IMG/VR virus record: IMGVR_UViG_3300033153_007973
Location: 1 to 64,000 of that record
Reading direction: 5' to 3' (one strand)
Source of the DNA: a virus
DNA length: 64,000 nucleotides
Of this stretch, positions 9,329 through 64,000 are shown piece by piece. Under the pieces are notes generated by a model. That model searched no databases and was not told the DNA's origin. It saw only the letters and a list, made by a program, of their open reading frames with translations. Each line of letters starts with the position of its first letter. Position 1 is the first letter of the stretch. Position numbers and translations under genes: made by a program.

Positions 9329-9350
9329 ACATTCTAGTCATTGTCAACGG

Positions 9351-17491: not shown

Positions 17492-17500
17492 TTGTCAACT

Positions 17501-30532: not shown

Positions 30533-30768
30533 GGATCGAATAGTTCACTCATAGTTGGCTTCGCTGGTTCTATAACTTTCTGTTTTCTAAGAGTAATCTC
30601 GAGTGTTGCTCTTGCTTCTTCCTTTTTAATGTAGTTCATAAATGAGTTCATGAATCTATTATCTACTATGAGTGTTTTCTCATCCATAGCTTGTCGAATA
30701 TCTTGTATCTCTGTAACTCTTCGTTCTAGTTCGTCTAATGTATCCATCATTTTATGAGTGCTAGCCAT
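30517..30768 (-). CDS. hypothetical protein with C-terminal PTMSELFDP tail
   Basis: Ends AKPTMSELFDPWRKT; member of the LFDP-tail family. Confidence 0.45.
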   Translation of the reverse strand: MASTHKMMDTLDELERRVTEIQDIRQAMDEKTLIVDNRFMNSFMNYIKKEEARATLEITLRKQKVIEPAKPTMSELFDPWRKT

Positions 30769-35402: not shown

Positions 35403-36128
35403 TCATCCCAACTCCTCCAGTAATGCCTTGACTTGCGCTCGGTCGCGTTCCACGCACTCTACCGTAAGCACGTTACCTGTTCCAGAGCAATCTATCCACC
35501 GCCCTGCCAGCTTCGCCACGTCCCTCAGTAGGTCACGATACTTCCCGTTGCTAACTCGAAGAGATCCAACTTTGCTCAGCTTTTGGACCCCCCGTAGTCT
35601 CGTAACAAGGTCGGGGTCGCGCAACACCACCTTCATAGCGTTCTTCATCCCCTCCTTGCGGGTCAGATTATTCACTGCGTCTCGCCCCGATGGGTCGCAC
35701 CTCGAACACTCATACGGGTTCGGTGGGTCGCACCTGTCATGCCCGTTGTCTGCTGGTCCTCCACAGGTAGGACATTTACTCAGGTCGGGTTGTTCGTATC
35801 TCATCGTGGCCTCCACAGCCTCAATCGCCTTCCCTATGTTGCTGGCAGCGATAGGCATGTTGTCAGTCTCTTCCAGCTTATCCGCATACCCACGGGCAAC
35901 CCACACCGCCAGATTAAGTAACGCTCTCTCTGTTTCCTGGGTCATTTGTTGTCGCCTCCTGATATGTGGGTCACTGTTATGGTTCCTTGCCTTCTTTAGC
36001 TTGATTGCCAGCATGCTCAATTCTGTTCTGCGTTCTGTGTATTCCGAAACACTTACCTTCGTGTTCATGGCTCGTTCAGTCAAACGCTCCACCAAATCCA
36101 GTAACGCTCTCTCTGTTTCCTTGGTCAT
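35403..36128 (-). CDS. hypothetical Cys-rich protein with duplicated N-terminal module (GC-rich island)
   Basis: MTKETERALLDL and MTQETERALLNL are each preceded by an SD; a 27-nt repeat occurs at about 35920 and 36097. Confidence 0.4.
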   Translation of the reverse strand: MTKETERALLDLVERLTERAMNTKVSVSEYTERRTELSMLAIKLKKARNHNSDPHIRRRQQMTQETERALLNLAVWVARGYADKLEETDNMPIAASNIGKAIEAVEATMRYEQPDLSKCPTCGGPADNGHDRCDPPNPYECSRCDPSGRDAVNNLTRKEGMKNAMKVVLRDPDLVTRLRGVQKLSKVGSLRVSNGKYRDLLRDVAKLAGRWIDCSGTGNVLTVECVERDRAQVKALLEELG

Positions 36129-36310
36129 TTCCCCTCCCTTACAATCACTTCGACCTTGTATGCCTTGGGGTTGTCCAGCGAGAGTTCCTTTCTTTGTCTC
36201 TTGCTTTGTATCGTGCGTATCCTTATCGCATCCATGAGGTGATCTAGGATGAGCGTTTCCGTACTCTCATCGTCATTCAGATCATATACCGTTACCATGC
36301 GTCTCTTCAT
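36125..36310 (-). CDS. hypothetical protein (GC-rich island)
   Basis: 61-aa track ORF. Confidence 0.3.
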   Translation of the reverse strand: MKRRMVTVYDLNDDESTETLILDHLMDAIRIRTIQSKRQRKELSLDNPKAYKVEVIVREGK

Positions 36311-36603
36311 CCCTTCCCCTTCCTCATCTTATCGGCTTCGGCCAGCAACGCTCTGTCTGCCTCGCACTCCTCCTTACTCGCACAATCCCGGCACCAATAA
36401 TCACTCTCCCTACACTCTTCGGCCTTGATCCTCTCCCGCATCCTCCCCACCAGATCCAGCGCGGCTTTCAGCTTGTCCTCTACGTCTTCCGTCGCCTTCC
36501 CCTGATGCAAACTAAGCTTGGTCCATAGGCTCTCCTCGTGGCATTCACCGCATACTGCATTAGCCGTTCCGCAGTTTCCGCACGATTTCAGCTCATCCAT
36601 CAC
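36307..36603 (-). CDS. hypothetical Cys-rich protein (GC-rich island)
   Basis: CGNCG...CGEC...CRDC. Confidence 0.35.
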   Translation of the reverse strand: MMDELKSCGNCGTANAVCGECHEESLWTKLSLHQGKATEDVEDKLKAALDLVGRMRERIKAEECRESDYWCRDCASKEECEADRALLAEADKMRKGKG

Positions 36604-36850
36604 CCTCTCCCTTCGTGTACTGGTCGGCCTCCCGATACCAATCGAACTGGTTGAAGTATTCCTGTAGCCCCTTGTCCTTGGCTACGCACTCCAGCACTCC
36701 GGTCACAAACTTCCTCCCCTTCGCCCGTTCCTCTTTTATCGCCTGCTCATATTCGTTCGCCAGTCTGTGCGCGTCGATGTAGGCCACCGTCTGTTCCGTC
36801 CGTTGCGGAAGAATCTTCCTCATCTCCCTCGCTCGTTCTATCGTTTTCAT
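36593..36850 (-). CDS. hypothetical protein (GC-rich island)
   Basis: 85-aa track ORF. Confidence 0.35.
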   Translation of the reverse strand: MKTIERAREMRKILPQRTEQTVAYIDAHRLANEYEQAIKEERAKGRKFVTGVLECVAKDKGLQEYFNQFDWYREADQYTKGEGDG

Positions 36851-37092
36851 TTCTTGCCTCGCTTCTCTCGTTCGGACATCATGGCATCGGCGTATCTGTA
36901 TGCCGATTTGGAAAACTCCTCACAGGTGCCGCCCAGATTATGGCCTGCCAGTATTCCCGTCAAGGCCGCAGCCGCGAATTGGTCCCTCCGCTGTTGCTCA
37001 ACGTCACTATACAACCTCTTCAACATTCCGTAGTTCGGGTCCAGTTCAGACAGCTCCGCTTCCAACTCTTTGATCCTCTCGTCTTTGGTCAT
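36847..37092 (-). CDS. hypothetical protein (GC-rich island)
   Basis: 81-aa track ORF. Confidence 0.35.
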   Translation of the reverse strand: MTKDERIKELEAELSELDPNYGMLKRLYSDVEQQRRDQFAAAALTGILAGHNLGGTCEEFSKSAYRYADAMMSEREKRGKK

Positions 37093-37392
37093 TTGGTATT
37101 ACCTCCCTTTGGGTCGCGCTTCGCACGTTCCAACGTCCTCACCAGTTTTGCCACAAGGTAACCCGTCATAGGTTCAACGGCTTTCCAAACGTAGTTGACA
37201 GCATGGACAATCTTCCACTTCACCCTTCCCCCTCCTGCTTCTGGGTCGAGGGCTTCACCGGAACCCACGAGCCGTGTATTGCATTCATTGCTCTTATAAC
37301 CCTATTGAGCCGCCTGTTCAGCTTGCTTGTTTTGTGGCTGACCGCAAGGGCAAGCACAAGAAACGCAATTATAATAATTGCCATCAGCATCT

Positions 37393-37755
37393 TCATGTCT
37401 TATCCTCCTGCTCTTTGATGATGGTGTCAATTCTCTTTTTCGCCTCGCACAAACCGTTCCTTGACCCGACATAGTACCTCTTTTTATCCTGGTCTGTCTG
37501 AGACATCGGCTCTCCTCCGTAGATTTCTGCTGTTATATTCTCGTCACTCACCCTATCCCCCAGCTCCTTGCTCAACTCCTTTATGCGGGTTAATAGGTCG
37601 GGTTGGGTCGCCTTCGGCAAAACCTCCACGTGTTCTTTGGGGATGACGAAATCTTCAGCCATACCATACTTGTCTTCTCTGATAACATGATATTCCTTAC
37701 CGCTTTTGACAAACATCGGGTATTCTCGTCTATCCCGTTTATCGAGAATCTTCAT
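37393..37755 (-). CDS. hypothetical protein
   Basis: 120-aa track ORF. Confidence 0.35.
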   Translation of the reverse strand: MKILDKRDRREYPMFVKSGKEYHVIREDKYGMAEDFVIPKEHVEVLPKATQPDLLTRIKELSKELGDRVSDENITAEIYGGEPMSQTDQDKKRYYVGSRNGLCEAKKRIDTIIKEQEDKT

Positions 37756-37776
37756 GATTTTCCTCGCTTCTTCATT

Positions 37777-38118
37777 CTATTTCCCCTTTTCTAGTCGCCT
37801 AATATCCGCATTTGAGATCCCGTACTTTCTTCGTATGATTGCATCAGCAATTAGTCCTGCCATGCGATCTATAGTACTATCCATATACTTTTCCGTCTTT
37901 ACTTCTTGTTTAATTGTAGCAAGTGTTTTGATTCTTGGAAGCAGTCTCTTCTTGTTCCAGACCTGATAGCCAAATTCCCATAGGTCATAATTATTCTTTT
38001 TGATGCAGGATTTACATTCGCCTCTTCTTCCGTCCTTCCAAGACTTGCTTATATAGAATTCACATAATAGCTTTAATTTACCACAGTACATGCATTTCTT
38101 TTTATGCTTTTTCTTCAT
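37777..38118 (-). CDS. hypothetical zinc-finger protein
   Basis: CMYCGK...CKSC. Confidence 0.35.
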   Translation of the reverse strand: MKKKHKKKCMYCGKLKLLCEFYISKSWKDGRRGECKSCIKKNNYDLWEFGYQVWNKKRLLPRIKTLATIKQEVKTEKYMDSTIDRMAGLIADAIIRRKYGISNADIRRLEKGK

Positions 38119-40737: not shown

Positions 40738-41112
40738 TTATTCTTTGACTTTCTTGATCATATCTTCGAGTGCTTCGTTTGCCAGCTTTGCAATATTACT
40801 GGGTATCTTTTTGACATCCTCATTATTCGCGATCTTCGGTAAAACATAGATCATCGACATTGTTTTGGATGTTGGAATCAGCACTGAGATGGGAGTAAAG
40901 ATGAGACAGATAATTATTCCCCATTTCATGATCGGCCAAGCTTTCTCTGCATCGCAATCGCATTGTCTTCCATCTCTGTCGAAATCACTATTAGCGACAT
41001 ATGCAATGCCGGATATTACAGCTGTAATAGATGATAATGCAGCTATTACGATACAGATTGAAGAGATAGCATCCAACCTCGTAATAATGTAAATTGTCCA
41101 GCCTAAACTCAT
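40738..41112 (-). CDS. hypothetical multi-pass membrane protein
   Basis: Several hydrophobic segments. Confidence 0.45.
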   Translation of the reverse strand: MSLGWTIYIITRLDAISSICIVIAALSSITAVISGIAYVANSDFDRDGRQCDCDAEKAWPIMKWGIIICLIFTPISVLIPTSKTMSMIYVLPKIANNEDVKKIPSNIAKLANEALEDMIKKVKE

Positions 41113-41519
41113 GTTATTCCTCCTATTGGATCGAATAGTTCTTCCTGTGTTATTTTTTGGCTCTTCTCTTTCTTGGCTTTTGACTGATGCTGAACAAGAT
41201 ATCCAACAATTTCTGCATTCTCTGTATGAATAAAGCTTCCTGTTGAGATTTTATTAGACATTGTGATGTTGTACCCGAGGCTGGATCCAAGTTTATCGTT
41301 TGTTTGTATATATAATGAATTGCATCTAAATACCTTCCCGACAAAATCATTATACCATGCTGTTGGCTGCTGTTTCTTAATGACCTTGATTAGCATTGTT
41401 TTCTCTAAGTATATATTGTTAGTCTTGAGTTTAGCTATATTCTTGGATCGTAATACTGTATCAGAGACAATTCTTCGTCTCTCTGCTTTTGTTGCTGCGA
41501 ATAGTTCGCTACTCATCAT
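41109..41519 (-). CDS. hypothetical protein with C-terminal EELFDPIGG tail
   Basis: Ends QEELFDPIGGIT; the GGAGG encoding IGG serves as SD for the next gene. Confidence 0.45.
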   Translation of the reverse strand: MMSSELFAATKAERRRIVSDTVLRSKNIAKLKTNNIYLEKTMLIKVIKKQQPTAWYNDFVGKVFRCNSLYIQTNDKLGSSLGYNITMSNKISTGSFIHTENAEIVGYLVQHQSKAKKEKSQKITQEELFDPIGGIT

Positions 41520-42892: not shown

Positions 42893-43300
42893 TTATCTCC
42901 TATATGGGTCAAATAGGTCATTCATCGTTGCTGTAATTGCAGCGTGTGTTTCTATTACTGTAGGCTCCTTGTGCGCTATTGTCCATACAATGATATCTTC
43001 TATACCTATGGTCCAGTTGCAGTATCGATTAAGCTTTGAGATTACTTCTGTCTTAAATTCCTGGTGTGATATAACTGCGATGTCTCTTGGGCAACAATCC
43101 AGTAATATAGCTAATGCGAGTTGTGCTGGTCCCGATCCATTATATCCCCAACAGAATCCGTCTGGTGAGTGGCGAATCTCTTTTAGTGAGCGGTTTGGAG
43201 TTATCTGCTTTGGTAATTTTCCACTGCGATGTTTATATACAGTATATGTTTCATTGGGTGTTCCTGCATGAAGTATTACTCCTTGGTAATGGTCGCTCAT
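42893..43300 (-). CDS. hypothetical protein with C-terminal TMNDLFDPYRR tail
   Basis: Conserved DGFCWGYNGSGPAQLALAIL block; the tail encodes the downstream SD AGGAGA. Confidence 0.45.
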   Translation of the reverse strand: MSDHYQGVILHAGTPNETYTVYKHRSGKLPKQITPNRSLKEIRHSPDGFCWGYNGSGPAQLALAILLDCCPRDIAVISHQEFKTEVISKLNRYCNWTIGIEDIIVWTIAHKEPTVIETHAAITATMNDLFDPYRR

Positions 43301-43821
43301 TATTTCTTCCTTAGTGGGTCGAATAAGTCATTCATTGTAGGAGGCTTTATCTCCTTTGGTTTACGTTGCCACCATGATCTGGTTCTCTTTACTTTGCCTG
43401 GGAATATTACTTTCTCGATGTGTCTTGTATAGCATAGACTTAGTATTCTACCTTGATCATATGGAAAAGGTATCTTTACAGAAACATGGACATCTGCTCT
43501 TTTCGTAATCATTACTAGTCGACCTATGAGTTCTATTGGTACGTTTCCATGTACAGTCATTTCATCGTTGACTTGGATGTAATCTCCTATTCCATATTTT
43601 GGATATAATCTAACTGGTACGAGGCATTTGCCTTCGTACCATTCTATATCTTTATCCATTGATATGGATTTGCTTCTTTCTCGCCAAGTTTTAATCTTAA
43701 GCTTAAGTCTCCAGAACCATCCAGGTTTCTGGCCATTAGAACGAGTGGCAGTGATCATGGTGAATAGTATATGTCCGCAAACAGCACCACCTGCAATGAG
43801 CAAGACAGTATCAGCGCTCAT
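43300..43821 (-). CDS. membrane-anchored hypothetical protein with C-terminal PTMNDLFDPLRKK tail
   Basis: N-terminal TM LLIAGGAVCGHILFTMI; ATGA start/stop overlap with neighbours. Confidence 0.45.
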   Translation of the reverse strand: MSADTVLLIAGGAVCGHILFTMITATRSNGQKPGWFWRLKLKIKTWRERSKSISMDKDIEWYEGKCLVPVRLYPKYGIGDYIQVNDEMTVHGNVPIELIGRLVMITKRADVHVSVKIPFPYDQGRILSLCYTRHIEKVIFPGKVKRTRSWWQRKPKEIKPPTMNDLFDPLRKK

Positions 43822-44257
43822 GCTTTCCTCCTATCGGATCGAATAGGTCATCACTTGTTGGCATATTTCTCTTTCTTGCGGTGTTCTTCTTTGCTGATTT
43901 AGATCGTTTCTTTCTTGTTAGAGCTACTCGAGCTTTTCCTATTTGTATATCGATTTGATGGAATACCTCCGTCATTGGAGTATTTGGAAAACCAGTAAGT
44001 TCGAATTCATATAACGTACGACCACTAAATGCTCGGGTATGAAATCTGATCTTTATTCCCCATAAATATTCAAGTCTGTCTTGATTATAATAAGATGTTC
44101 TCATATTATATGAGACATATAGTTTGTAGTCTTCACATATTTCACGCCAAAATCGCACATACTTCTTTACGGAAGTGATTCTATCTACTGTGGGTGGCTT
44201 AGGTATAATAATATGTATAGCTTCGAGCACTTTACCATTAATCGGTGGAATGGGCAT
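43811..44257 (-). CDS. hypothetical protein with C-terminal TSDDLFDPIGGKHER tail
   Basis: The tail codons GGAGGAAAG act as SD for the next gene. Confidence 0.45.
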   Translation of the reverse strand: MPIPPINGKVLEAIHIIIPKPPTVDRITSVKKYVRFWREICEDYKLYVSYNMRTSYYNQDRLEYLWGIKIRFHTRAFSGRTLYEFELTGFPNTPMTEVFHQIDIQIGKARVALTRKKRSKSAKKNTARKRNMPTSDDLFDPIGGKHER

Positions 44258-49441: not shown

Positions 49442-49912
49442 TTACTCCTTATGGGGGTCGAATAAATCCGCTATGGATGCGACATCAGGGTAGGGTAATG
49501 GTGGTGGTCGTTGTGTCATAGTATCTTTGAATGAGCATAGAATAGAATACCGATTGTCATCGTGCATTCTGTCAGAGTCATGAATATAGTGTTTGCACTT
49601 CGTGCATTCATTTGCGCCCACTTTGTTTAAATATATGTATGGGCACTGTGTCATACATGCTCCGCTCACTCTTACGAGATAGTATATCTCTTCTGCCATA
49701 TCATGTCTTCTCCCTTTCTTTTGTCCTAAGATCATGTATGACCTGATCCAGGAGTTTGACCAGTCCTTGTGCGGATTCGAGTGAGAGTATAATCTCTTTC
49801 TTATCGTTGTATTCAGTAGTAGATCCATCACCGATAAATATGTTTGCCTCTCCGGTATTTGGTGTTTGGTCATCGAGATTATATCCCACGGAGATAGTAC
49901 GGTCAGCCTCAA
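49442..49912 (-). CDS. Cys-rich hypothetical protein with C-terminal IADLFDPHKE tail
   Basis: LFDP-family member; the tail encodes the downstream SD. Confidence 0.45.
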   Translation of the reverse strand: MRLTVLSPWDIISMTKHQIPERQTYLSVMDLLLNTTIRKRLYSHSNPHKDWSNSWIRSYMILGQKKGRRHDMAEEIYYLVRVSGACMTQCPYIYLNKVGANECTKCKHYIHDSDRMHDDNRYSILCSFKDTMTQRPPPLPYPDVASIADLFDPHKE

Positions 49913-49976
49913 AAGTCTGTGTTATCGTTTCGCGTTTAAGCATGGTCATTCTCCTTATATGGATCAAATAATTCAT
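49701..49976 (-). CDS. hypothetical protein (likely true start MTMLKRE near 49946)
   Basis: Track ORF; an SD AAGGAG precedes the internal ATG. Confidence 0.3.
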   Translation of the reverse strand: MNYLIHIRRMTMLKRETITQTFEADRTISVGYNLDDQTPNTGEANIFIGDGSTTEYNDKKEIILSLESAQGLVKLLDQVIHDLRTKEREKT

Positions 49977-50289
49977 CCACTGATTTGATTCGACTCTTCC
50001 AGTGACATATTATAAACTTTTGATCATAGTTTAGGTATCCTCCAGCATGAGGACATATATTAACACACCATATGGATCCTATGTATACTAGATGGTCTAT
50101 GTCAATTGGATGATGTGAACATGTTCCTTTCGTTTCTACTTTCGTGTCCATATAGTTACATTGTTGTGTTTCTCCATGGGTTTCAGGCATGGTCTGACTT
50201 CCTGAGGGGTTAGCCCTCCATATCCAATACCAGGATAGTTTAGATGATACTGTTGTTTGGGATTGTCTTGTGCTATTTTGGTTAAGCAC
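49936..50289 (-). CDS. Cys/His-rich hypothetical protein with C-terminal SVDELFDPYKENDHA tail
   Basis: LFDP-family member. Confidence 0.45.
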   Translation of the reverse strand: MLNQNSTRQSQTTVSSKLSWYWIWRANPSGSQTMPETHGETQQCNYMDTKVETKGTCSHHPIDIDHLVYIGSIWCVNICPHAGGYLNYDQKFIICHWKSRIKSVDELFDPYKENDHA

Positions 50290-51580: not shown

Positions 51581-51883
51581 CTAATCGGTTACCGGTCGAG
51601 GTGCGCCGATTCCCTTACTTATATTAAGATATTCTGCTATCACGTGACCGTGGCAAGCTTTTGGTGAACAGTAACATACGATATGTTTCCCTCGTAGTTC
51701 TGATACTGCCTTAAAGAATGTAGTATCATTGCGCATTCTTTCATGAAAGTGTTTCTCGAACTTCTCGATAACTTGTGTTCTGTCTCCATCCTTACCTATT
51801 ACGTAGGGATTACCATAGGGAGAACCACGGCCGATATATACGTCTCCAGGTTTCTTGTCCTTAATGTGACCTACAGTTGTCAT
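51581..51883 (-). CDS. small conserved protein (GSPYGNPY...CYCSPKACHGHV motif)
   Basis: The pattern recalls a DUF4326-like family; the assignment is unverified. Confidence 0.3.
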   Translation of the reverse strand: MTTVGHIKDKKPGDVYIGRGSPYGNPYVIGKDGDRTQVIEKFEKHFHERMRNDTTFFKAVSELRGKHIVCYCSPKACHGHVIAEYLNISKGIGAPRPVTD

Positions 51884-52149
51884 GATTTCTCCCGATGTGG
51901 ATCGAATATCTCATCCATTGTAGGTTGAGGTAGTGCTGGTATGTGTTGTGTTCTCTTGGCTTCAGGATAGTGACAGTAAACTAAACCTGTGATGCTGATG
52001 TCGGTTGCGCGAATTACTTCCTTACCGTCGAAGCACTTACAGGTTTGACATCTTATCGAGCTTACTCTACATGGTTGGTGATGTGGGCATGGTGGATTAG
52101 TTATACTTGATGTACCATATACTTGCACTGTATATCTATGTGTATGCAT
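51880..52149 (-). CDS. Cys-rich protein with C-terminal PTMDEIFDPHREKS tail
   Basis: LFDP-family member. Confidence 0.45.
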   Translation of the reverse strand: MHTHRYTVQVYGTSSITNPPCPHHQPCRVSSIRCQTCKCFDGKEVIRATDISITGLVYCHYPEAKRTQHIPALPQPTMDEIFDPHREKS

Positions 52150-54766: not shown

Positions 54767-55107
54767 CTATCATATGAATAGAGGCATTGTATGCTATCTA
54801 TACAGGGTGACAATAAGGTGTATGTTATAGGGTATGAGAGTGTAGTGATTCCAAAACACCCGAGTCATACCGTATTTATACGGGTAAGTATTACGAGGTT
54901 AGACGAGCTATAGCGCTGGTATATGCTTGGTGAGCATATTATGCGTATAGCATGTTAATCTCGAGTCATGAATCGACCTTGACGGCTATTCATACGTGCT
55001 CGATTTTCATTAGAGCACTGTTATTGCGTGCTCGCTCTGCTCGCACTTGGTGCTACTATATAGTTAGAGAGAGCGATAGTGTTCTGTTTTTGTATAAGTA
55101 GAGGGTT

Positions 55108-55135
55108 GCGCGCGGCGTCCCGCCGCGCGTTTACG
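55108..55135. promoter_or_regulatory. GC-rich palindromic hairpin (terminator-like)
   Basis: CGCGCGGCG-TCC-CGCCGCGCG 9-bp stem followed by TTT; a second imperfect GC hairpin lies at about 55160-55195 followed by TTCTT. Confidence 0.3.
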
Positions 55136-55194
55136 ACGTAGTTAGGTGTGGGAAAAAGAGAGCGCGAACACCTGTTGTGGTGCCCGCGCGCTTC

Positions 55195-55383
55195 TTAGGG
55201 TGATTGTGGTTCAGTCAGTGGTTTGAGATCGACTGGCTGTTCCGGTTCTGGTGATGCTTTGTCTTCTTCGGGAGGTGTCAGGTCAACGTTCTTCTCGTTG
55301 GATTGTCTGACTTTGCCGATGATGGCGATGCCGGCGATGGCTGCAACTCCCAGGATACCAAGTCCGATCAGGATCTTCTTCAT
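55195..55383 (-). CDS. small membrane-anchored protein
   Basis: N-terminal TM ILIGLGILGVAAIAGIAIIG, then a Pro/Glu-rich tail. Confidence 0.4.
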   Translation of the reverse strand: MKKILIGLGILGVAAIAGIAIIGKVRQSNEKNVDLTPPEEDKASPEPEQPVDLKPLTEPQSP

Positions 55384-55574
55384 GACTTGTTCTCCTTAAT
55401 GCCGAGTTTCTTCGAGGCGTCGATTGCCCCGGTGACTCCGGCTTTGATGATGATGGAGCAGTCTTTCACGGCGAGTTTGGTCATTTTAATGGCGGGTTTG
55501 GACGCTTCTTTCACGCCTTTCAGCCCTTCATTAAAACAGCTTTTGAGCTCTTTCAGATACTTGAGAATATTCAT
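55380..55574 (-). CDS. hypothetical small protein
   Basis: 64-aa track ORF. Confidence 0.35.
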   Translation of the reverse strand: MNILKYLKELKSCFNEGLKGVKEASKPAIKMTKLAVKDCSIIIKAGVTGAIDASKKLGIKENKS

Positions 55575-55586
55575 ATATGTACCTCC

Positions 55587-55793
55587 TTAGAAGAATATCT
55601 TGATTGCCTCTATTGCATAATAGAGACATCCCAACAGGAATGCGATACTTGGGAGTATGATGAATGACAGCACAACCAAGCCGGCAATTCCGAGGACGAG
55701 CTTGAGCAGGACTTTGTTTATGAACCATTCGAGCATGTCCCATTTGTCAGCGATGACCATACCGCTCCAGATTCTCATTTGTGATACCTCCAT
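55587..55793 (-). CDS. small membrane protein (holin-like size)
   Basis: TM LVLGIAGLVVLSFIILPSIAFLLG. Confidence 0.4.
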   Translation of the reverse strand: MEVSQMRIWSGMVIADKWDMLEWFINKVLLKLVLGIAGLVVLSFIILPSIAFLLGCLYYAIEAIKIFF

Positions 55794-55957
55794 TAGCTAA
55801 AGATTCTGCTGAGGAGATCGCCGATTAGTGCGAACCACCCAATGCAGAGTTGGGTTAATATGAACATGCCATCTTTGAGTGCTGGAAATATCATAGAGCA
55901 CAGCTTGAGAACAGGTACTGCAATGATCAGTATTATACCGATTAGTATACCTTTCAT
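55793..55957 (-). CDS. small membrane protein (54 aa; not in ORF track)
   Basis: ATG preceded by GGAGGT; translates to MKGILIGIILIIAVPVLKLCSMIF.... It overlaps the track ORF 55797..56144 in another frame, and that track ORF is judged spurious. Confidence 0.35.
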   Translation of the reverse strand: MKGILIGIILIIAVPVLKLCSMIFPALKDGMFILTQLCIGWFALIGDLLSRIFS

Positions 55958-56058
55958 ATGAGTACCTCCTAGAGTATGATTGCATGGCAGTGTGGCATGA
56001 AGATGGGGCTACTAACCCAGCCACCACTGAGATATCTCCCAGTGCCTGCGCAGGACCG

Positions 56059-56077
56059 CCATTATAAATGCGAAATC
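56059..56077 (-). promoter_or_regulatory. Repeated promoter-like motif, copy 1
   Basis: Plus strand CCATTATAAATGCGAAATC, i.e. minus strand GATTTCGCATTTATAATGG with an embedded TATAAT; it lies upstream of the small membrane-protein gene cluster. Confidence 0.45.
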
Positions 56078-56198
56078 CATCTGATAAAAAGAAGCCACGA
56101 ACTATAGGCTGTAGTCCGTGGCTATGAGCAGGAGGAGGGTGCATATGTGTTACGCGGAGTTAAGGAAGGATGGAGAGTGGGCCAAAGGCGCATACCCT

Positions 56199-56217
56199 CC
56201 ATTATAAATGCGAAATC
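56199..56217 (-). promoter_or_regulatory. Repeated promoter-like motif, copy 2
   Basis: Identical 19-mer CCATTATAAATGCGAAATC. Confidence 0.45.
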
Positions 56218-56421
56218 ACTCATACTCAGCCGATAGCCACAGCGGTTCGATGCTCTGTTTGTCTAAGTTGTTTCGAACCTGCGTGATTGCATCCTGTTTA
56301 TCGGCTCCTGTTACCATCTGGTAATCATGGATATTCTTGCCGTCCTTGTCATGGTACAGGTAACTCACTCGGAATTGGCGCATATTATCCCCTCCTTTAT
56401 AATAGGATACTGGACGTAGAA

Positions 56422-56667
56422 TTAAACGCCCAGCTCCAGCTGATTTGTGTGTGGTTTGAATTTCACACAGGTTATCTCGCCCACTACTATTTCTTTATAG
56501 TGGACTCGGGTCTCAATGGGAGTCACCCAACCCATTTTCCGGATCATCTGCATTGTGATGTTCCGGGTTGCGCTCTGACGCGTGGTTGCCAGAGTCTGGA
56601 ATTTGTATGAGGTCGAGCCCCAACGGGCGGTGGCCTCATACACAAGACGATTGAATTTGGATGTCAT
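56422..56667 (-). CDS. hypothetical protein
   Basis: 81-aa track ORF; SD AAGGAGG. Confidence 0.4.
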   Translation of the reverse strand: MTSKFNRLVYEATARWGSTSYKFQTLATTRQSATRNITMQMIRKMGWVTPIETRVHYKEIVVGEITCVKFKPHTNQLELGV

Positions 56668-56707
56668 GATAAGCCTCCTTGATAGATTTTGGGGTTCGAT
56701 CTCGTTC

Positions 56708-56726
56708 CATTAATAATGCGAAAGCT
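56708..56726 (-). promoter_or_regulatory. Repeated promoter-like motif, copy 3
   Basis: CCATTAATAATGCGAAAGC, about 40 nt upstream of the start at 56667. Confidence 0.4.
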
Positions 56727-56920
56727 ATGAAATCGGCATACAGCACTAAAGCCATTATACATACGAAGGTCATATAGAAGACTATTGCTATCATGTTATA
56801 GGGCTGTCGGGTTCCTAGGACAAGCATTTTGGCATGCGTGACGCACCATAGCGCAGTAGTTATGTGACGATCCAATTACCTATGAACGGAGGCGGTGTGA
56901 GCCACCCCCGCTCGACCAGC

Positions 56921-59659
56921 TTAATCTTTCACGTGCTGGTTACGCTTGATCAGATGGTGTGTACCTGCCGCCCGATCAGATATGATACTCAATGTCCCAG
57001 GAGTCAGATTCAAGCGCTTCTCTTCACGCTCGAGGTCTGACTGGATAGCACCCAGGATCTTTTCGTTCTCTTCCTCCTTTCTAACGTCGACCGTAGCCAG
57101 CCAATATAGCCAGCTACGATCAATCACCCGCCTAGCACATGCCAGGACACGCGGGTCGAATCCTGACAGACCACCATACAGCCCCTTGTTATTGCTGCTG
57201 GTGTAACTGATGATACAGATCATGATCATAACCTGCATCTCCTCCAAGGCCACACCGAACTCCTTGGAGAACACGTGAGCTCCAGTATGGAACAACGCAG
57301 CCACTTTCTGCTGACTTGTTTCCATATTGGCATGTGCTCTCTTATCGGACTGCCAAATATCCATAGCCCGACAAATCATGGAGCGATACTTCTCGCGCAT
57401 CACTCCATCGGTGTACATCACTTTCTCCGATAGCTGCTTACCATCCTTGGTGGGTAGAGCAGCCTGTCGACCAGTGATTGGATTGATCCCGATCCGCTCT
57501 GCAACCTTATGCATAATAGGATCAGTCTTCACCATCTCACGTGCCTTGTTATGAATATGGTTCTCAGGTGTTCCGAGTTTCATATCAACTAGAGGCTCGA
57601 AGATCGCCCGCAGGAACGGATCTGAGCGATCGATGCGATGGTGATTACCAGCGATGGACATGAGCTTATCCATATCCACCTCACCAGTGTTAGCGTTAAC
57701 ACAACCAAGCTCATCCAGACCTCCGATGAGTTGCTCCCTGTTTGTATCAACAACCACAATCGTCCGACCGCCTTTCTGCTTGCGATTGAACGACTCGGAA
57801 GCGATCATATGTAACAGTGACCGCGGCCGAAGTGTGAATTTGGGATCGATCTTCTTAGCTGCATCAGTAAACGCGAAGACTGATGCTTTATAATCGATCT
57901 TCCGGACGGAGTGCTTAATTCCATCCAGAAAGCTCTGCAGGAAATGTAGTTTCATCCCCCGCAGGAAATACTGGACATCGTCTCTATAGAAGATGCCCAG
58001 ACGCAGGAATCCCTCTTGGAACCTGCGAAACAGCTGAGTTGCCCGCCCAATCATGAGCGAGTCGAACCCATATCCAGTTGTTGCTACCTGAATCAGCATA
58101 TCAGCAACTGGCTTAGTCACCTTGCATACTTTGCGAAGGTGTCCAACATCATTATTCTCATCCTCATGTACAACCTCAGGAGGACAGATCTCATCCTCGG
58201 GACGCCATGCTAGATTTCTAACGAGCCCGAAGACTTCATCAGGGTACACAACCACGATATCACCATCGAAGTCACCACCCAACTGCCCCATCAGGATAGG
58301 ATTCACCCTGATGCTGTCTCCCTCGAACCCCACCACCTTCACAGTAACGACGGTGTCAGGGAACACAGGATGCCTGGCGATGATGATCTTATCACCAAGC
58401 TCGAAGCCCTTGCCCTTGAAACATGTGGGCAGGATCACATTAAGCGCCCCGATGAGATGTTCAGGTACTGAGTATGAGAAGCGCCCAGCCGTAACTCCGC
58501 GAGTGATCAACCCACGGATTAACGGATAGATCATGCTCCGTGCTTTCTCGAGCATAGATCCAAACTGGGTGCTATCTACTTCACGTAACGCATCCATCAC
58601 TCCCTGTAGAGTGGCAGAGAATTTGCGATGGTCTTCTCCTTCCTCAGGTGCAACACCACGTGACATGACGTACCGTGCCAGGTGGTGATCACCAGTAGAC
58701 ACCGCAGCTGCAAACTCAGTAGCTCTTGTTTTGAGCCAGGTGAGTGGTTTATCCATATCCATCCATCTGGCCTTTGTCAGGAGACTCAAAGATCCGCGAG
58801 CTCCCTTATTCTTCAGATATGCATCCCCAGACTTATGGAGATAGATATCCATGAACAGGGTTCCCAATTCCCCATCCCAGCTGCCTATACCAATAACCTT
58901 CATGGTATCGACAGCTATCTTCATCTCTTTGTCAACATAACGGGAAGTTAACGCACACCCATCCATATTGATAGAGTTGGGTAGTACATAGAACTCTACC
59001 CCCATCAGTACCCCACTCTGCAGAGGTGTGTTACAATACTTGCCTAACTTGAACAGCTTCTGCCCAAGTAGGTTCTTCAGTGTGTCCGGAGTTACGAACA
59101 CAACGCCCCGCTCTGCCATTGCTAGCAGTGGGTCTATCATCTTCACATCTACGTGCTTGGAGACATGTTCTAATATCCAACGCCTCATGTACTTGTGTGA
59201 ACGCCGCTGGATAACACCCTTGAAGATCACAAGTACCTTCAATGATATCCCCAATACCTTCTTAATGGCACTGGAGACCGAACAGTTGATCGTAGCCATG
59301 AGCGGGGCCTGCCCGAACTCAGGTACGACACGCATCTTACCGGGGAACATGTGACGCCTGTTCTCCTTCAGATGTGTCACCATCCCTCCAATGCTCTCCA
59401 GTGCATCATCACACTGAAGACCAAGGAAGCCTTCTCTTGCTTGCACAAAGGCACCACCACATGCCTTCAGTACACGGGCCAGGATACTATCCTGAACCGA
59501 GACGGTGAGCTCCGACCCCTCGATCGGAATGTCCACTACAGGGTAGAGCCGGTCGCCCGACACCTCATCCTGTACTGGGTGTGCCACCATCCATGCCCCG
59601 AAGAACCTCTTCTTCAGGGAGGACAGTGCACCATCCAAGACACTGTTTATCTTGTTCAT
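56921..59659 (-). CDS. Second RNA polymerase beta-prime-like catalytic subunit
   Basis: 912-aa ORF with GQLGGDFDGDIVVVYPDE, the DFDGD catalytic motif. Confidence 0.7.
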   Translation of the reverse strand: MNKINSVLDGALSSLKKRFFGAWMVAHPVQDEVSGDRLYPVVDIPIEGSELTVSVQDSILARVLKACGGAFVQAREGFLGLQCDDALESIGGMVTHLKENRRHMFPGKMRVVPEFGQAPLMATINCSVSSAIKKVLGISLKVLVIFKGVIQRRSHKYMRRWILEHVSKHVDVKMIDPLLAMAERGVVFVTPDTLKNLLGQKLFKLGKYCNTPLQSGVLMGVEFYVLPNSINMDGCALTSRYVDKEMKIAVDTMKVIGIGSWDGELGTLFMDIYLHKSGDAYLKNKGARGSLSLLTKARWMDMDKPLTWLKTRATEFAAAVSTGDHHLARYVMSRGVAPEEGEDHRKFSATLQGVMDALREVDSTQFGSMLEKARSMIYPLIRGLITRGVTAGRFSYSVPEHLIGALNVILPTCFKGKGFELGDKIIIARHPVFPDTVVTVKVVGFEGDSIRVNPILMGQLGGDFDGDIVVVYPDEVFGLVRNLAWRPEDEICPPEVVHEDENNDVGHLRKVCKVTKPVADMLIQVATTGYGFDSLMIGRATQLFRRFQEGFLRLGIFYRDDVQYFLRGMKLHFLQSFLDGIKHSVRKIDYKASVFAFTDAAKKIDPKFTLRPRSLLHMIASESFNRKQKGGRTIVVVDTNREQLIGGLDELGCVNANTGEVDMDKLMSIAGNHHRIDRSDPFLRAIFEPLVDMKLGTPENHIHNKAREMVKTDPIMHKVAERIGINPITGRQAALPTKDGKQLSEKVMYTDGVMREKYRSMICRAMDIWQSDKRAHANMETSQQKVAALFHTGAHVFSKEFGVALEEMQVMIMICIISYTSSNNKGLYGGLSGFDPRVLACARRVIDRSWLYWLATVDVRKEEENEKILGAIQSDLEREEKRLNLTPGTLSIISDRAAGTHHLIKRNQHVKD

Positions 59660-59938
59660 AGCCTACCTCCTGCTTATTCTTTACTCACCTGTCCTCAATG
59701 AACAGGCGTCATATCCTTCTATCTCCCACTATCCCATGTTGTTGTCTACTAGTCGCTAAACCTAAAGGTCTTCATCTCACCCTTCGGCCCAGCGAGGATG
59801 TACATGCGTGCATACTTGAGGTACACGCATATCCATCCTGCGTCGATTAGCCTGTTGATCTCGAGCCATGTTGTGCTAGTCATGACTTGCCTCCTGTTGT
59901 GTTACTCACCCTCCTATACAGGTGGGTGTACTACATTG

Positions 59939-59996
59939 GCCCATGTGGGGACTCGAACCCCAATGCACATACCACGTGCACCTGCCTAGCATGGGC
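59939..59996 (-). ncRNA. tRNA-like minihelix lacking a D-arm (58 nt)
   Basis: GCCCATG-CTAGGCAGG-TGCAC-GTGGTAT-GTGCA-T-TGGGG-TTCGAGT-CCCCA-CATGGGC: acceptor, anticodon-like arm and T-arm are present but there is no D-arm. Confidence 0.35.
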
Positions 59997-60013
59997 CACC
60001 TCCTACTGCCAGG

Positions 60014-60220
60014 CTACTTGATGAACTTGTAGCCTGACATGTTACGGATCTTCTGTTCGGTACATGGCATACATATGTACCGATCATTGATCAGCTTGGC
60101 ATATGACATCTTCATGATGTCCATGCCGGTGGTCATGTCCACCTTTGACACAACCTTCGAACAACAACCACATGTGCGTACCCGTACTATCTTGCCCTTC
60201 TCTTTGATCATGTGTTCCAT
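60014..60220 (-). CDS. small zinc-ribbon protein
   Basis: CGCCSK...CMPCTE. Confidence 0.4.
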   Translation of the reverse strand: MEHMIKEKGKIVRVRTCGCCSKVVSKVDMTTGMDIMKMSYAKLINDRYICMPCTEQKIRNMSGYKFIK

Positions 60221-60222
60221 TG

Positions 60223-60465
60223 TTATGCCTCCTGCTTATTTATTCCCGAGCCATCTGACCCGGGGGCGTGAATCTTTCTACTTTCAATACCACTAATATC
60301 ATAGGGTAACTCGCGGACAGCACTCGATTCGAGCCTCTTTACTGCTCTCAGATATACTAAAAAAACCAAAACGGTTTCGAGCCCCTTTACAGTCAGAATT
60401 TCGCGCCACGGGCGGGGCACCACAGCCCCAGCCAGCGCATACGCAATATATTTAAAGTCTCGCAA
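60223..60465 (-). CDS. hypothetical protein
   Basis: 80-aa track ORF; the last minus-strand gene before the strand switch. Confidence 0.35.
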   Translation of the reverse strand: MRDFKYIAYALAGAVVPRPWREILTVKGLETVLVFLVYLRAVKRLESSAVRELPYDISGIESRKIHAPGSDGSGINKQEA

Positions 60466-60494
60466 CGTAGTTGCTCACTTTCCTAGGAAAGTGC

Positions 60495-60522
60495 TTGACA
60501 GATCCACAGCATATGCTACTAT
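60495..60522 (+). promoter_or_regulatory. Sigma-70-like promoter (TTGACA-16-TACTAT) for the plus-strand gene array
   Basis: TTGACA at 60495-60500 and TACTAT at 60517-60522; a second GTGCTTGACC element lies at 60523-60532. Confidence 0.4.
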
Positions 60523-60696
60523 GTGCTTGACCTTTAGTTGAAGTGGATAGAGGCATGGGAGCATGCTTCTGAGGACTTCATAGTCTGAAGATGGAGGGTA
60601 CCGTAGATTACGGCCGTAATCGCGGGAGAGTAGATCCAGACTGCACAGCCACCCTTGTTGCTCTAATGGTCATGCAATATATTCCGGGAGGGGATA

Positions 60697-61079
60697 TTAT
60701 GCCAATAACAGAAGCAAATATATACTTTAATGTGTCGGGTTATCCTATTAACAGTACATCTATACATCCTGGAGATGGACGCCCTATTATAGAATACGTC
60801 AAGGAAAGCTACAATGTGTCCTTTCCTGTGTCAGGTGGACCACATGCTGATTGCGGATATGATATGTGGGAGGTAGACATCTCATGCCCTTACTGTGGTA
60901 ATCATTTCAAGACATGTCGGAGAACTGACATAAATGCACCACGTATAACATGTCATAAGTGTAGGAATAATTTCGATGTATATAATGATATGATCAGAGA
61001 AGAACTGGCCAAGCAGAATGGAGAAAACGCGGACCCTTCTATAGTAGAGGTAATCAAAGATGGAATCATCACAGTGTAA
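60697..61079 (+). CDS. GLIP-tail family paralog A (zinc ribbon)
   Basis: Likely start MPITEANIY (SD GGGAGGGG) within the track ORF 60591..61079. CPYCGNHF...CHKCRNNF. Ends SIVEVIKDGIITV. Confidence 0.45.
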
Positions 61080-61356
61080 ACATCCAGGGGATGGTTTTTA
61101 TATTGTCAGGAGAGTATCGAGATACTCTAAGGAGGATGGATATATTATAATACTGGGGTGTCCTCATTGTGGTAAGGAATTGCAGATGACGGGATATAAA
61201 GATCAGCGTATTATACGTACAGTATGTGTTGAGTGCAACGAACCGATCATGATATACAGGAACATGGTACAAGCAACGATACACAGACAACGCGGAGAAA
61301 CACTCTCGCCAGACAGTGTGAATGTAGTCAGGAAGGGACTTATTAGTGATTCTTAG
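61060..61356 (+). CDS. GLIP-tail family paralog B (zinc ribbon)
   Basis: CPHCGKEL...CVECNEP; ends SVNVVRKGLISDS. Confidence 0.5.
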   Translation: MESSQCKHPGDGFYIVRRVSRYSKEDGYIIILGCPHCGKELQMTGYKDQRIIRTVCVECNEPIMIYRNMVQATIHRQRGETLSPDSVNVVRKGLISDS

Positions 61357-61669
61357 AGCAATACCACCTATTATACATGGTAAGAGGGTAGTTACCAATG
61401 ACATGGCTTTGCTTGTTCTCAGGTGTGATAACTGCGGGGCAGAATTCACTGTATATCATGAAACAAAGACACAAGACGAGGTTAAATGTGATGTATGTTC
61501 GGATACAGTAGTAGTTATGCCCAGACTAATGGAAGCAGCATGGGATAAGGAGAGGGGGCTGTGGGGTGAGCCGGAAGATGTACGAGTTCTAAAAACCGGT
61601 TTGATCCCTTTAGGTGAGTTAAAGGTGCAGAAGTGCCGCGAATTTATAGATCTTGTGAGGAGATCATAA
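61346..61669 (+). CDS. GLIP-tail family paralog C (zinc ribbon)
   Basis: CDNCGAEF...CDVCSDTV; contains EDVRVLKTGLIPLGE. Confidence 0.5.
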   Translation: MILRAIPPIIHGKRVVTNDMALLVLRCDNCGAEFTVYHETKTQDEVKCDVCSDTVVVMPRLMEAAWDKERGLWGEPEDVRVLKTGLIPLGELKVQKCREFIDLVRRS

Positions 61670-61977
61670 TGGCTATAACTATAGAGGAATATCGAGCATG
61701 GTTGGATGCAAATAATCAACATGTGAATATCGGTTCTGATCATTCACATATAGACCGGAGTATCATGAGTAACGATGCGGAGATTACTATTCCCGCTAGG
61801 ACCGTGATTGTTCCCCAGGTAGATATGGTGATGGGTGATGAGAATCAGATCATCTTTGAGTGCACGGACGGAATGGTAGTGATCTTTAATAAAAAAGATC
61901 TGAATGGTGTCTTCCCGGTGGTGGACCCCTCAAAATCCGAAATGGTGCGGTCTGGGTTGATCCCTAGTGGCGAATAA
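61633..61977 (+). CDS. GLIP-tail family paralog D
   Basis: Ends KSEMVRSGLIPSGE. Confidence 0.5.
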   Translation: MPRIYRSCEEIIMAITIEEYRAWLDANNQHVNIGSDHSHIDRSIMSNDAEITIPARTVIVPQVDMVMGDENQIIFECTDGMVVIFNKKDLNGVFPVVDPSKSEMVRSGLIPSGE

Positions 61978-62278
61978 TGACTATTTTGATGAGTTGATCC
62001 AGAGGACTAGAGATATGGGCAATGGACCTTCATTTATTGTTAAACATGCTAGAGCCGCCGATGATGCTGTTAATGTCGAGGTCATATGTCCACATTGTAG
62101 TAAGATTCAATATGATATGATCGTCAGAGGGATTGATGTTGGAAGATGCTGTATGCATTGCATGAGTTCAGCTACTATTAGAGCAAAGGATGTGGAACAC
62201 GCCATCAATGATTTGTTAGAACAAGATAAGCCCATGAATATGAGTGTGTTGCGTGATGGGCTTATACCGGAGGAATAA
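61967..62278 (+). CDS. GLIP-tail family paralog E (zinc ribbon)
   Basis: CPHCSKIQ...CCMHC; ends MSVLRDGLIPEE. Confidence 0.5.
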   Translation: MANNDYFDELIQRTRDMGNGPSFIVKHARAADDAVNVEVICPHCSKIQYDMIVRGIDVGRCCMHCMSSATIRAKDVEHAINDLLEQDKPMNMSVLRDGLIPEE

Positions 62279-62733
62279 TGTCACAAGCAGATGCACTAGA
62301 AGCATTAATGAGGAGAAGAAATATGGCATTGACACCAGCACCACGAGCTATATCACGTAGTGAAGCAGCATACGAACGCCCACCAATGATTGCACAAAAT
62401 GCTTGGCTCCGGGTTCCAAATGGAAACGTAAAGCCGCCGGAGCCAAAAATAGATGGCCCTGATATCAGTACGAAAACGATTATCCTAGATATGATCTCTA
62501 TGGGTGTCGCTGTGCTGCGTCGGCTTTGGACCAAGAAGAAGGTATCATATGGTAATGTCGCGGCTGATGTACTGAAGACGCGTAAAAAAGAAGATGAGAA
62601 GCTGGCGATTCTGGTCAGTCCAGTTATCAGACCGGGGATTATTACACTGGATAAACTTCCAAAGAAGAGACCGCGACCGGTTCCAACTATAGATGGCATT
62701 GGCATAATGAGAGGAGATATCGATGGCGACTAA
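62278..62733 (+). CDS. hypothetical protein within the paralog array (divergent tail IDGIGIMRGDIDGD)
   Basis: 151-aa track ORF. Confidence 0.4.
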   Translation: MSQADALEALMRRRNMALTPAPRAISRSEAAYERPPMIAQNAWLRVPNGNVKPPEPKIDGPDISTKTIILDMISMGVAVLRRLWTKKKVSYGNVAADVLKTRKKEDEKLAILVSPVIRPGIITLDKLPKKRPRPVPTIDGIGIMRGDIDGD

Positions 62734-63028
62734 CGTAGGAGAGAATGATCCGCGTTTCCTTCAAGATATGCTCGATATACCGACGAATGAGCCAGCATGG
62801 CAGCTGGATAGTCGGGGCAATATCATAGGTATAGTTAATTGTCCGCGGGCTGTGCATTATCAGCTGGATGAGAATGGTGTGATAGATTTTAATCATACGG
62901 TTAATGTGCCGCCAGCGCTAGGAGATATATTCTCTGCTATGAATAAAGAGAATGAAGAAAAACCGGTAGTACCTGATGTTGCGCAGATAGTGCGTTCTGG
63001 ACTTATTCCTGATGATACCATTCGGTAG
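62723..63028 (+). CDS. GLIP-tail family paralog G
   Basis: Ends VAQIVRSGLIPDDTIR. Confidence 0.5.
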   Translation: MATNVGENDPRFLQDMLDIPTNEPAWQLDSRGNIIGIVNCPRAVHYQLDENGVIDFNHTVNVPPALGDIFSAMNKENEEKPVVPDVAQIVRSGLIPDDTIR

Positions 63029-63407
63029 TATAGGAGGAGACATGGGAATAGTAGTTTGCGGGCCAATGTGCATATATCGATCTGGACGTAAGTGTTCACA
63101 TGAGGATGCGCCGGATACTTTCCTCAGTAAATGGTTCCCGAAATGGTTCTCGCCCAGATGCACTGAGTGGGGTAAATTACAGGAAGACTGCGACATGCAT
63201 GAGCTTCCCCCGCGACCACCCATGCGTGGAAGAGCGATGCGAACTGAGAGGCCGGCTAATCTAGATGGTATCTCCATGCAGTTACATACGACAATGGACC
63301 CAGATGTATTCTTTGGTAAGAGGACAATGGGAGGAAAACAGTTGCAGCCAGACTCCACCAAGGTAATCAGGAAGGGACTTATCCCGGAGGATAAAAATGG
63401 CAAGTAA
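63012..63407 (+). CDS. GLIP-tail family paralog H
   Basis: Ends STKVIRKGLIPEDKNGK; contains a CGPMC...CSHE Cys cluster. Confidence 0.5.
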   Translation: MIPFGSIGGDMGIVVCGPMCIYRSGRKCSHEDAPDTFLSKWFPKWFSPRCTEWGKLQEDCDMHELPPRPPMRGRAMRTERPANLDGISMQLHTTMDPDVFFGKRTMGGKQLQPDSTKVIRKGLIPEDKNGK

Positions 63408-63684
63408 AATATATTTCATGAGCGATGCACATATCGGAAATGGAGATATGATAGACAATCTGAAACTATATACTAGAGATCCAAGTAAAGAGATCTCGCT
63501 GCTTTGGGACAAGATCGCAGACCAGAAAAAGGTCTCTAGTGATCCAAATGACATGGTACTGACATATTCAGTGGGTAAGTTCGGGAAGGGGCTGAGAATA
63601 GAGGAGAAGAAGGAGAGACCGGTGATCCCTGAAATCTCGAAGACCATCAGAGATGGGATCATCCCGTTCAGCAAACTGACATAA
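63397..63684 (+). CDS. GLIP-tail family paralog I
   Basis: Ends ISKTIRDGIIPFSKLT. Confidence 0.5.
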   Translation: MASKIYFMSDAHIGNGDMIDNLKLYTRDPSKEISLLWDKIADQKKVSSDPNDMVLTYSVGKFGKGLRIEEKKERPVIPEISKTIRDGIIPFSKLT

Positions 63685-64000
63685 TGCCTATATCTAAGTC
63701 ACATTTTCTTGGTATTCTGAGAGAACGCCGGGACCGGCGCGAGCAAGAGAAGAGACTGGCCACACATGATGATGTATCAAAAGAGAAGAAGAGGAAGAAG
63801 CTTGCCAGGATCTCAATGACCGATGAGGTATTTATGAGATTCCTCACTGGAGAATACTACATAGATCTAGATGATGATATTGTCATAGAAAGAATGTGGA
63901 TTGAGAACCAATATGTGGAGGCCAAAATAAATATCGTTATATCAGGGGAGAGTCTGAAAGTAGGTTATACTACGCCAAATGCAAGTATCCCGGAGTTCTC
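63684..64000 (+). CDS. hypothetical protein, 5-prime part (continues beyond the window)
   Basis: ATG at 63684 (MPISKSHFLGIL...) is open to the window end. Confidence 0.35.
   Translation, partial: MPISKSHFLGILRERRDRREQEKRLATHDDVSKEKKRKKLARISMTDEVFMRFLTGEYYIDLDDDIVIERMWIENQYVEAKINIVISGESLKVGYTTPNASIPEF

Follow-up and report, generated by a model that had tools for sequence, protein, structure and literature searches.

A 64,000-nucleotide (nt) stretch of an uncultured giant phage (IMG/VR record IMGVR_UViG_3300033153_007973, positions 1 to 64,000; hereafter the window) carries nine consecutive plus-strand open reading frames (ORFs) that fill positions 60591-63684 and share a short C-terminal module on otherwise strongly diverged bodies. 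This tail comprises 13 residues, P-[DE]-x-x-x-V-[IVL]-[RK]-x-G-[LI]-I-[PTS], of which the Gly and the Ile that follows it are invariant. The reading we favor, to which we give an even chance, is that nine diversified small proteins dock via a flexible C-terminal peptide on a common partner. All nine genes of the tandem array exist as laid out in a preliminary description of this DNA, whose interpretation as a whole is partly supported by the present analysis. The genes and their tail modules (13 codons each) are as follows.

60591-61079, plus strand: ORF1, zinc-ribbon member; module at 61035-61073; tail DPSIVEVIKDGIITV at the stop.
61060-61356, plus strand: ORF2, 98 amino acids (aa), zinc-ribbon member with N-terminal HPGDGFYIV; module at 61309-61347; tail SPDSVNVVRKGLISDS at the stop.
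61346-61669, plus strand: ORF3, 107 aa, GTG start, zinc-ribbon member; module at 61571-61609; motif EPEDVRVLKTGLIP followed by 19 residues.
61669-61977, plus strand: ORF4, 102 aa, ATG start with Shine-Dalgarno sequence GTGAGGAG, no zinc ribbon; module at 61927-61965; tail DPSKSEMVRSGLIPSGE at the stop.
62015-62278, plus strand: ORF5, 87 aa, zinc-ribbon member; module at 62231-62269; tail KPMNMSVLRDGLIPEE at the stop.
62278-62733, plus strand: ORF6, 151 aa, isoelectric point (pI) 10.2, no Cys; module at 62608-62646; internal motif ILVSPVIRPGIIT, 28 residues before the stop.
62723-63028, plus strand: ORF7, 101 aa, pI 4.3, no zinc ribbon; module at 62972-63010; tail VPDVAQIVRSGLIPDDTIR at the stop.
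63042-63407, plus strand: ORF8, 121 aa, five Cys in a different spacing; module at 63348-63386; tail QPDSTKVIRKGLIPEDKNGK at the stop.
63397-63684, plus strand: ORF9, 95 aa, no Cys; module at 63628-63666; tail IPEISKTIRDGIIPFSKLT at the stop.

Within the window, the tail is exclusive to the array. A regular expression for its eight-residue core, [VILMT][VILM][RK]xG[LIVM]I[PTS], matched in nine places when the 64 kb was translated in all six frames, once per array ORF and nowhere else, while 50 shuffled versions of the window gave a mean of 0.08 matches and a maximum of 1. The preliminary description had counted the tail in at least eight of the nine genes, followed by zero to nine residues; the count is in fact nine of nine, and the short spacing applies to seven genes (1-6 residues after the core) but not to ORF3 (19) or ORF6 (28). 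A separate gene call on a 9.4-kb Joint Genome Institute (JGI) contig, one base different from the window, returned the same nine genes. Regarding starts, that of ORF1 is more likely 60699 (126 aa, Shine-Dalgarno GGGAGGGG) than 60591 (162 aa), and alternatives exist for ORF4 (GTG at 61633), ORF5 (GTG at 61967, giving 103 aa) and ORF8 (ATG at 63012).

The tail peptide is under purifying selection at the protein level. Identity among the nine proteins is 42% in the tail versus 17% upstream of it, in line with the divergent bodies and conserved tail described earlier. Pairwise nucleotide identity over the module is 0.58 at codon positions 1 and 2 and only 0.28 at position 3, where composition alone predicts 0.26; codons coincide in only 34% of pairs of identical residues, and three different codons encode each of the two invariant residues, Gly and Ile. 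Since third positions are random, conservation acts on the protein and the tail copies are old. Recent duplication with undiverged N-termini, which the preliminary description had named as the finding that would overturn it, is thereby removed.

Upstream of the tail, the array splits into two groups. CxxC...CxxC pairs occur in ORF1, 2, 3 and 5 only; these have four invariant Cys in two CxxC knuckles ∼18-20 residues apart, and share in addition an N-terminal H-P-G-D-G-x-Y-I-V strand and a helix ahead of the tail. These four alone fall into the zinc-ribbon structural class (a beta hairpin between two CxxC knuckles), with strands near the Cys in a model of ORF2; ORF4, 6, 7 and 9, with zero or one Cys, do not belong to it. 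Once the tails were removed, local alignments scored against shuffles gave z values of 16.5 (ORF1-ORF2), 10.3 (ORF2-ORF3), 4.2 (ORF1-ORF3), 4.0 (ORF1-ORF5), 3.3 (ORF2-ORF5) and 1.7 (ORF3-ORF5), and values below 2 for all pairs with ORF4, 6, 7, 8 or 9. Similarly, aligning a zinc-group profile to a profile of the other five with hhalign yielded a probability of 0.07%. The designation "zinc-ribbon paralogs" thus fits four of the genes, and has to be withdrawn for the five whose bodies lack similarity by either measure.

Neither group could be assigned to a described family, as searches of Pfam, PHROG, NCBIfam, PADLOC and PDB, together with fold searches, gave no match identifying one. This includes the known structural or assembly families that the preliminary description had considered fatal to its proposal, for which no library returned a match. 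The zinc members produced sub-threshold generic zinc-ribbon matches only, and ORF4, 6, 7, 8 and 9 nothing at all in the sequence searches of Pfam, PHROGs, NCBIfam, PADLOC and PDB. The best curated-family score was 22.7 bits against a cut-off of 34.4, and all NCBIfam matches likewise stayed below their cut-offs; the best PHROG match (E = 5.7e-5) was to an unnamed family and covered the zinc knuckles only. PADLOC matches reached at most 17.7 bits, which places the array outside the known anti-phage defense families. Generic zinc ribbons (Zn_ribbon_8/FmdB, eS27, RpoP, Lar, ClpX N-domain) matched ORF1, 2, 3 and 5 weakly, with the N-terminal PGDG strand, the helix and the tail lying outside every match.

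The family is new and very rare. A search for GLIP-tailed proteins in other phages, as suggested earlier, uncovered one relative. That is, the zinc-group profile run against 1.84 billion representative proteins found a single true relative, P0009 (109 aa, E 1.7e-7), besides the four query proteins themselves and generic multi-zinc-ribbon proteins. P0009 is encoded on L003, a 739-bp contig of a metagenome from a cold seep in the South China Sea; the contig holds three consecutive tail-bearing genes: the upstream one ends in VEVIRNGLIKG, P0009 in VEVVKDGIIRRKG, and the third is an ORF2 orthologue with 54% identity (near the contig ends, one base has to be corrected in two of the three frames; we take these faults as assembly errors). 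Common to both phages is the core V-x-V-[IV]-[RK]-x-G-[LI]-I, while the Pro and later residues are not kept; these tails argue that the core is retained across phages. Word-indexed searches with both groups found only the array itself and P0009, and scanning with conserved peptides found nothing in IMG/VR, JGI metagenomes or GTDB genomes. A degenerate DNA pattern of the tail gave 12 single matches in IMG/VR; every one fell in a short or out-of-frame ORF, and no array was among them. A megablast of the locus together with a tblastn of the adjacent 912-aa protein produced no match among 50,697 phage records.

The codon data also bear on whether the tail might reflect a signal that acts at the gene junctions in nucleic acid or translation, be it a ribosome-binding site, promoter or nascent-peptide arrest element. 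Each motif does lie just upstream of the next start, the GGAGGA Shine-Dalgarno sequences of ORF6 and ORF9 fall in the PEE/PED codons behind GLIP, AGGAAGGGA (R-K-G) precedes the ORF3 start, and a 13-residue length would fit an element in the ribosomal exit tunnel. However, random third positions and three codons each for Gly and Ile mean that no DNA or RNA element is conserved, and the ORF3 and ORF6 motifs lie 19-28 codons from the junction. The codon analysis rules out a DNA- or RNA-level cause of the conservation, and this version of a junction signal is already largely refuted. As for arrest, Pro is essential in SecM-type peptides; here it is replaced by T/S in three of the nine paralogs and by K/R in both intact L003 tails. 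Altogether, we regard a junction signal as very improbable. What does serve the next gene is CCGGAGGA, the Shine-Dalgarno behind P-E-E and P-E-D after GLIP; to that extent the acidic stretch is a ribosome-binding sequence and does not belong to the tag.

How, then, might the favored docking arrangement work? Each product would consist of a small diverged globular head, a linker and the 13-residue C-terminal peptide, with four heads built on zinc ribbons and five of unrecognizable origin. As a short linear docking or address motif, the peptide would bring all nine proteins to one partner surface, and the variable heads would supply nine different activities or targets. The pI of the heads spans 4.3 to 10.2, which indicates functional diversification. 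Likewise, the occurrence of the tail on heads without a common fold-level signal fits a portable tag and not an element of a fold, and we infer that it binds a partner. An AlphaFold2 model of ORF2 (10-sequence alignment; mean predicted local distance difference test score, pLDDT, of 74) places five strands (residues 16-66) ahead of a helix (67-77) in its core; block means are 75-89 over residues 11-80, whereas the last 18 residues (81-98) have a pLDDT of 49 and do not pack on the core.

Several points weigh against docking. The tail matched no known docking motif, as it has neither Q nor F as in QL[SD]LF and no GSLGIGSL. The low pLDDT of the ORF2 tail stems from the 10-sequence alignment and is no proof of disorder, and the motif sits short of the C-terminus in ORF3 and ORF6. 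In addition, a weak N-terminal likeness, [HN]-[PIV]-G-[DNSE]-[GND], runs across the array, and the ORF6/7 and ORF8/9 junctions are identical over 11 nt (ATGGCNANTAA). These two features suggest a very old common ancestry of all nine genes from what may have been one gene, in which case retention of the tail could reflect a shared structural role.

Such ancestry would also suit the main rival reading, self-association, in which the tail has no external partner but acts as a strand or turn for homo- or hetero-oligomerization or folds back onto its own head. The hydrophobic alternation V-x-V-[IV], as read from the sequence, is strand-like, and the zinc-ribbon expansion of Bacillus phage G likewise keeps a C-terminal module on homologous bodies. 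On the other hand, five of the nine heads have no detectable similarity, so that a conserved intramolecular docking surface is unlikely, and AlphaFold leaves the tail unpacked on the ORF2 core, albeit from a shallow alignment. We consider self-association unlikely on balance. If the tail were only an oligomerization strand, the finding would reduce to a lineage-specific expansion as in phage G.

The phage G case merits a closer comparison. This jumbo phage has a ∼35-copy expansion of small zinc-ribbon proteins, e.g., gp32 (YP_009015343.1), for which a role as specific transcription factors or structural DNA binders has been suggested (Iyer et al. 2021, PMC7824862). Both are sets of tandem small genes combining an N-terminal CxxC...C zinc ribbon with a conserved C-terminal module; five phage G members that we read (gp32, 34, 35, 37 and 46; NC_023719, L004, 26153-33106) end in YWKENDRYLAKILSK, a module that goes unmentioned in the review citing these paralogs. 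Yet homology with the array is not detectable, as hhalign gave a probability of 24% over 18 columns, all at the first CPxC knuckle. The phage G module, WKENDRYL(A/V)K, looks helical, whereas the array tails read V-[IVL]-[RK]-x-G-[LI]-I; and the phage G copies are homologous over their full length, whereas five of the nine array genes share the tail only. The array is therefore a jumbo-phage gene expansion like one of known kind, with the extra feature that its shared element behaves like a portable tag.

Should the tail indeed dock on a partner, we would tentatively rank a hydrophobic-groove hub such as the sliding clamp first, a packaging or compartment address second, and a protease tether or degron working with a phage ClpP third. 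Clamp-binding motifs (QL[SD]LF; in MutL, QPLLIP in Escherichia coli and QEMIVP in Bacillus subtilis) are short hydrophobic peptides, mostly at flexible termini, through which many unrelated partners reach one hub (PMC6511837). In E. coli MutL, the pocket is occupied by Leu485 and Ile486, and Gln482 can be dispensed with (PMC6511837); the array G-L-I-P contains the L-I-P of this peptide. However, none of the nine tails has a Q or an F, the invariant Gly stands where MutL has Leu or Met, and three paralogs and the related phage have lost the Pro. Thus, the tails deviate from the canonical motif (Gln at position 1, Leu/Phe at positions 4-5), and the window yielded no clamp gene.

An address for virion packaging or for a phage compartment would explain one short peptide on unrelated small proteins. 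The array proteins occur on a 234,008-bp contig of JGI 3300033148, the source being a deep-branching jumbo-phage-like genome of ∼234 kb, and jumbo phages package many proteins. The capsid targeting sequence of T4 routes proteins into the capsid; it is N-terminal and cleaved, whereas the array tail is C-terminal. Encapsulin systems of Family 1 come closer, with short C-terminal peptides that bind unrelated cargo proteins to one virus-type shell of the HK97 fold (PMC8346489). When compared by eye, though, the tail does not match their GSLGIGSL or TVGSL-like consensus (SDGSLGIGSLKRS). No structural or capsid-like gene, and no adjacent HK97-fold shell gene or late context, was seen among the scanned ORFs of the window, which covers 64 of ∼234 kb. 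The operon opens at a strand switch, follows a sigma-70-like promoter candidate and has no structural genes with it in the 64 kb; it therefore looks early and not late, which makes a packaging address improbable in our view.

Proteolysis offers another destination, with the tail as a tether or degron for Clp-type degradation of the heads, their targets or the proteins themselves. Two genes of the window are relevant here, a bona fide ClpP and a transfer-messenger RNA (tmRNA).

10896-11486, minus strand: ClpP (Pfam CLP_protease, 256.8 bits).
24079-24457, minus strand: tmRNA (Rfam RF00023, 49.4 bits, gathering score 47; G3:U70 acceptor stem), missed by ARAGORN.

Adaptors such as SspB, built from a head, a linker and a C-terminal peptide, resemble the array proteins. 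Moreover, jumbo phages with ClpP/ClpS are thought to redirect host proteolysis (PMC7824862). Against this, no motif match to known Clp recognition signals could be shown, the window contains no unfoldase gene, and the tmRNA tag, read by eye as DETNANDTILVGNFGSMNQNVACA, is unrelated to the tail, so that a link between the two was rejected. A proteolytic role thus seems to us distinctly improbable. Directly after the ClpP gene, a 74-aa CxxC protein (11483-11707) has no family match.

The GLIP-type tail is not the only C-terminal label in this genome. As already noted in the preliminary description, the window holds a second tagged family, which we confirm on the minus strand: at least nine proteins, otherwise unrelated and with no BLASTP matches between them, terminate in [ST]-[MI]-x-[DE]-[LI]-F-D-P plus 3-7 residues. 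The pattern [LIM]FDP occurs 14 times on the coding strand, compared with ∼2 expected on both strands. The carriers are these.

30517-30768, minus strand: second-tag ORF.
41109-41519, minus strand: second-tag ORF.
42893-43300, minus strand: second-tag ORF.
43300-43821, minus strand: second-tag ORF.
43811-44257, minus strand: second-tag ORF.
49442-49912, minus strand: second-tag ORF.
49936-50289, minus strand: second-tag ORF.
51880-52149, minus strand: second-tag ORF.
Small ORF ending near 18850, minus strand: second-tag ORF.
30860, 5122, 5078 and 4649, minus strand: internal or N-terminal copies of the second tag.

The [DE]-L-F-D-P of this tag resembles the [SD]-L-F end of the canonical clamp motif, and its presence in the same genome makes C-terminal peptide tags seem a general device of the phage. 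One could go further and picture a two-label code, in which the GLIP-type and [DE][LI]FDP tags route dozens of unrelated small proteins to two hubs or destinations, which could be the clamp or replisome, the inside of the capsid, a phage compartment or a protease based on the phage ClpP. Such a virus-encoded sorting or recruitment system is a doubtful proposition at present, but the weight of the finding would rise sharply if both families were part of one. To our knowledge, a protein-sorting system of short linear motifs has not been described for bacteriophages. Together, the two tags suggest motif-based recruitment on a scale familiar from clamp partners or encapsulin cargos but not from sets of phage ORFans. 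If the docking reading is true, a phage has spread one linear motif over heads diverged beyond recognition, and the 13-residue tail would provide a handle to pull down a hub of the phage's early program.

The array begins at the sole strand switch of the window. From ORF1 to ORF9, the junctions measure -20, -11, -1, +37, -1, -11, +13 and -11 nt (starts chosen by best Shine-Dalgarno), so the overlaps of a few nt reported earlier are present at six of eight junctions and absent at two (+37, +13). The nine genes are best read as one translationally coupled operon, flanked by the following features.

60495-60522, plus strand: sigma-70-like promoter candidate, TTGACA, 16 nt, TG-n-TACTAT (10 of 12 consensus matches).
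63684-64000, plus strand: ORF10, the next operon gene, with a TAATG junction; cut by the window end.

As read from contig L001, ORF10 has no tail motif in its first 197 residues. The promoter candidate sits in a 125-bp divergent intergenic region in which GTGCTTGAC is repeated at 60491 and 60523. The sigma-70-like site ahead of the array is a consensus match only; sites with at least 9 of 12 matches number 18 in the 4.4-kb region versus 10.1 ± 3.4 in shuffles. From such a site, expression of the operon may be predicted to be early and host-dependent. The firmer claim of early expression by host RNA polymerase is overstated, as it drew on this single match in a genome that encodes at least two beta'-like RNA polymerase proteins, with which host-independent transcription is possible. 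The part in host takeover or anti-defense that the preliminary description derived from it is speculative.

608-4234, minus strand: RNA polymerase protein of 1208 aa, a single chain that combines beta (Rpb2_6) with beta' (Rpb1_2) domains.
56921-59659, minus strand: beta'-like protein of 912 aa adjoining the array, with GGDFDGD; it can be aligned to the beta' portion of the protein of 1208 aa (E 3e-5).

Among phage records, the 1208-aa protein matched only rpoB-like stretches at 22.8-25.8% identity in unannotated Listeria and Staphylococcus phages, and the 912-aa protein had no homologue among 5.8 billion proteins. Other promoter-like sites were noted on the minus strand, namely a perfect TTGACA-17-TATAAT at 17470-17498, upstream of the ORF at 16969-17451, and TTGACA-17-TACACT at 9319-9347, upstream of an HNH endonuclease gene (8423-9328). 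The perfect site, lying within the minus-strand block, suggests that the phage may use host-type promoters. An 8-mer search of 36 intergenic regions for a phage-specific promoter motif returned Shine-Dalgarno-like words only.

Beyond these genes, the window encodes RtcB, an RNA ligase, a DNA ligase, an NAD synthase and 11 transfer RNAs (tRNAs). Near the array, an Rfam scan over 55000-64000 gave only a weak tRNA-like match; this element (59939-59996, minus strand) lies upstream of the gene for the 912-aa protein, in a gap of 354 bp, matches mascRNA/menRNA with 25.9 bits (E 0.084) and was not called by ARAGORN. Close by, at 60014-60220 on the minus strand, a 68-aa CxxC...CxxC zinc ribbon divergent from the array has no tail and no PHROG match. 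At a distance from the array, a 289-aa nucleotidyltransferase-like protein (PHROG matches; 27094-27963, minus strand) ends in ENDIPF, resembling the acidic DDDIPF tip of bacterial single-stranded DNA-binding protein. Finally, positions 36001-38000 stand out in composition, with a G+C content (GC) of 0.494 and a GC skew of -0.279 versus ∼0.43 and ∼-0.06 in neighboring segments.

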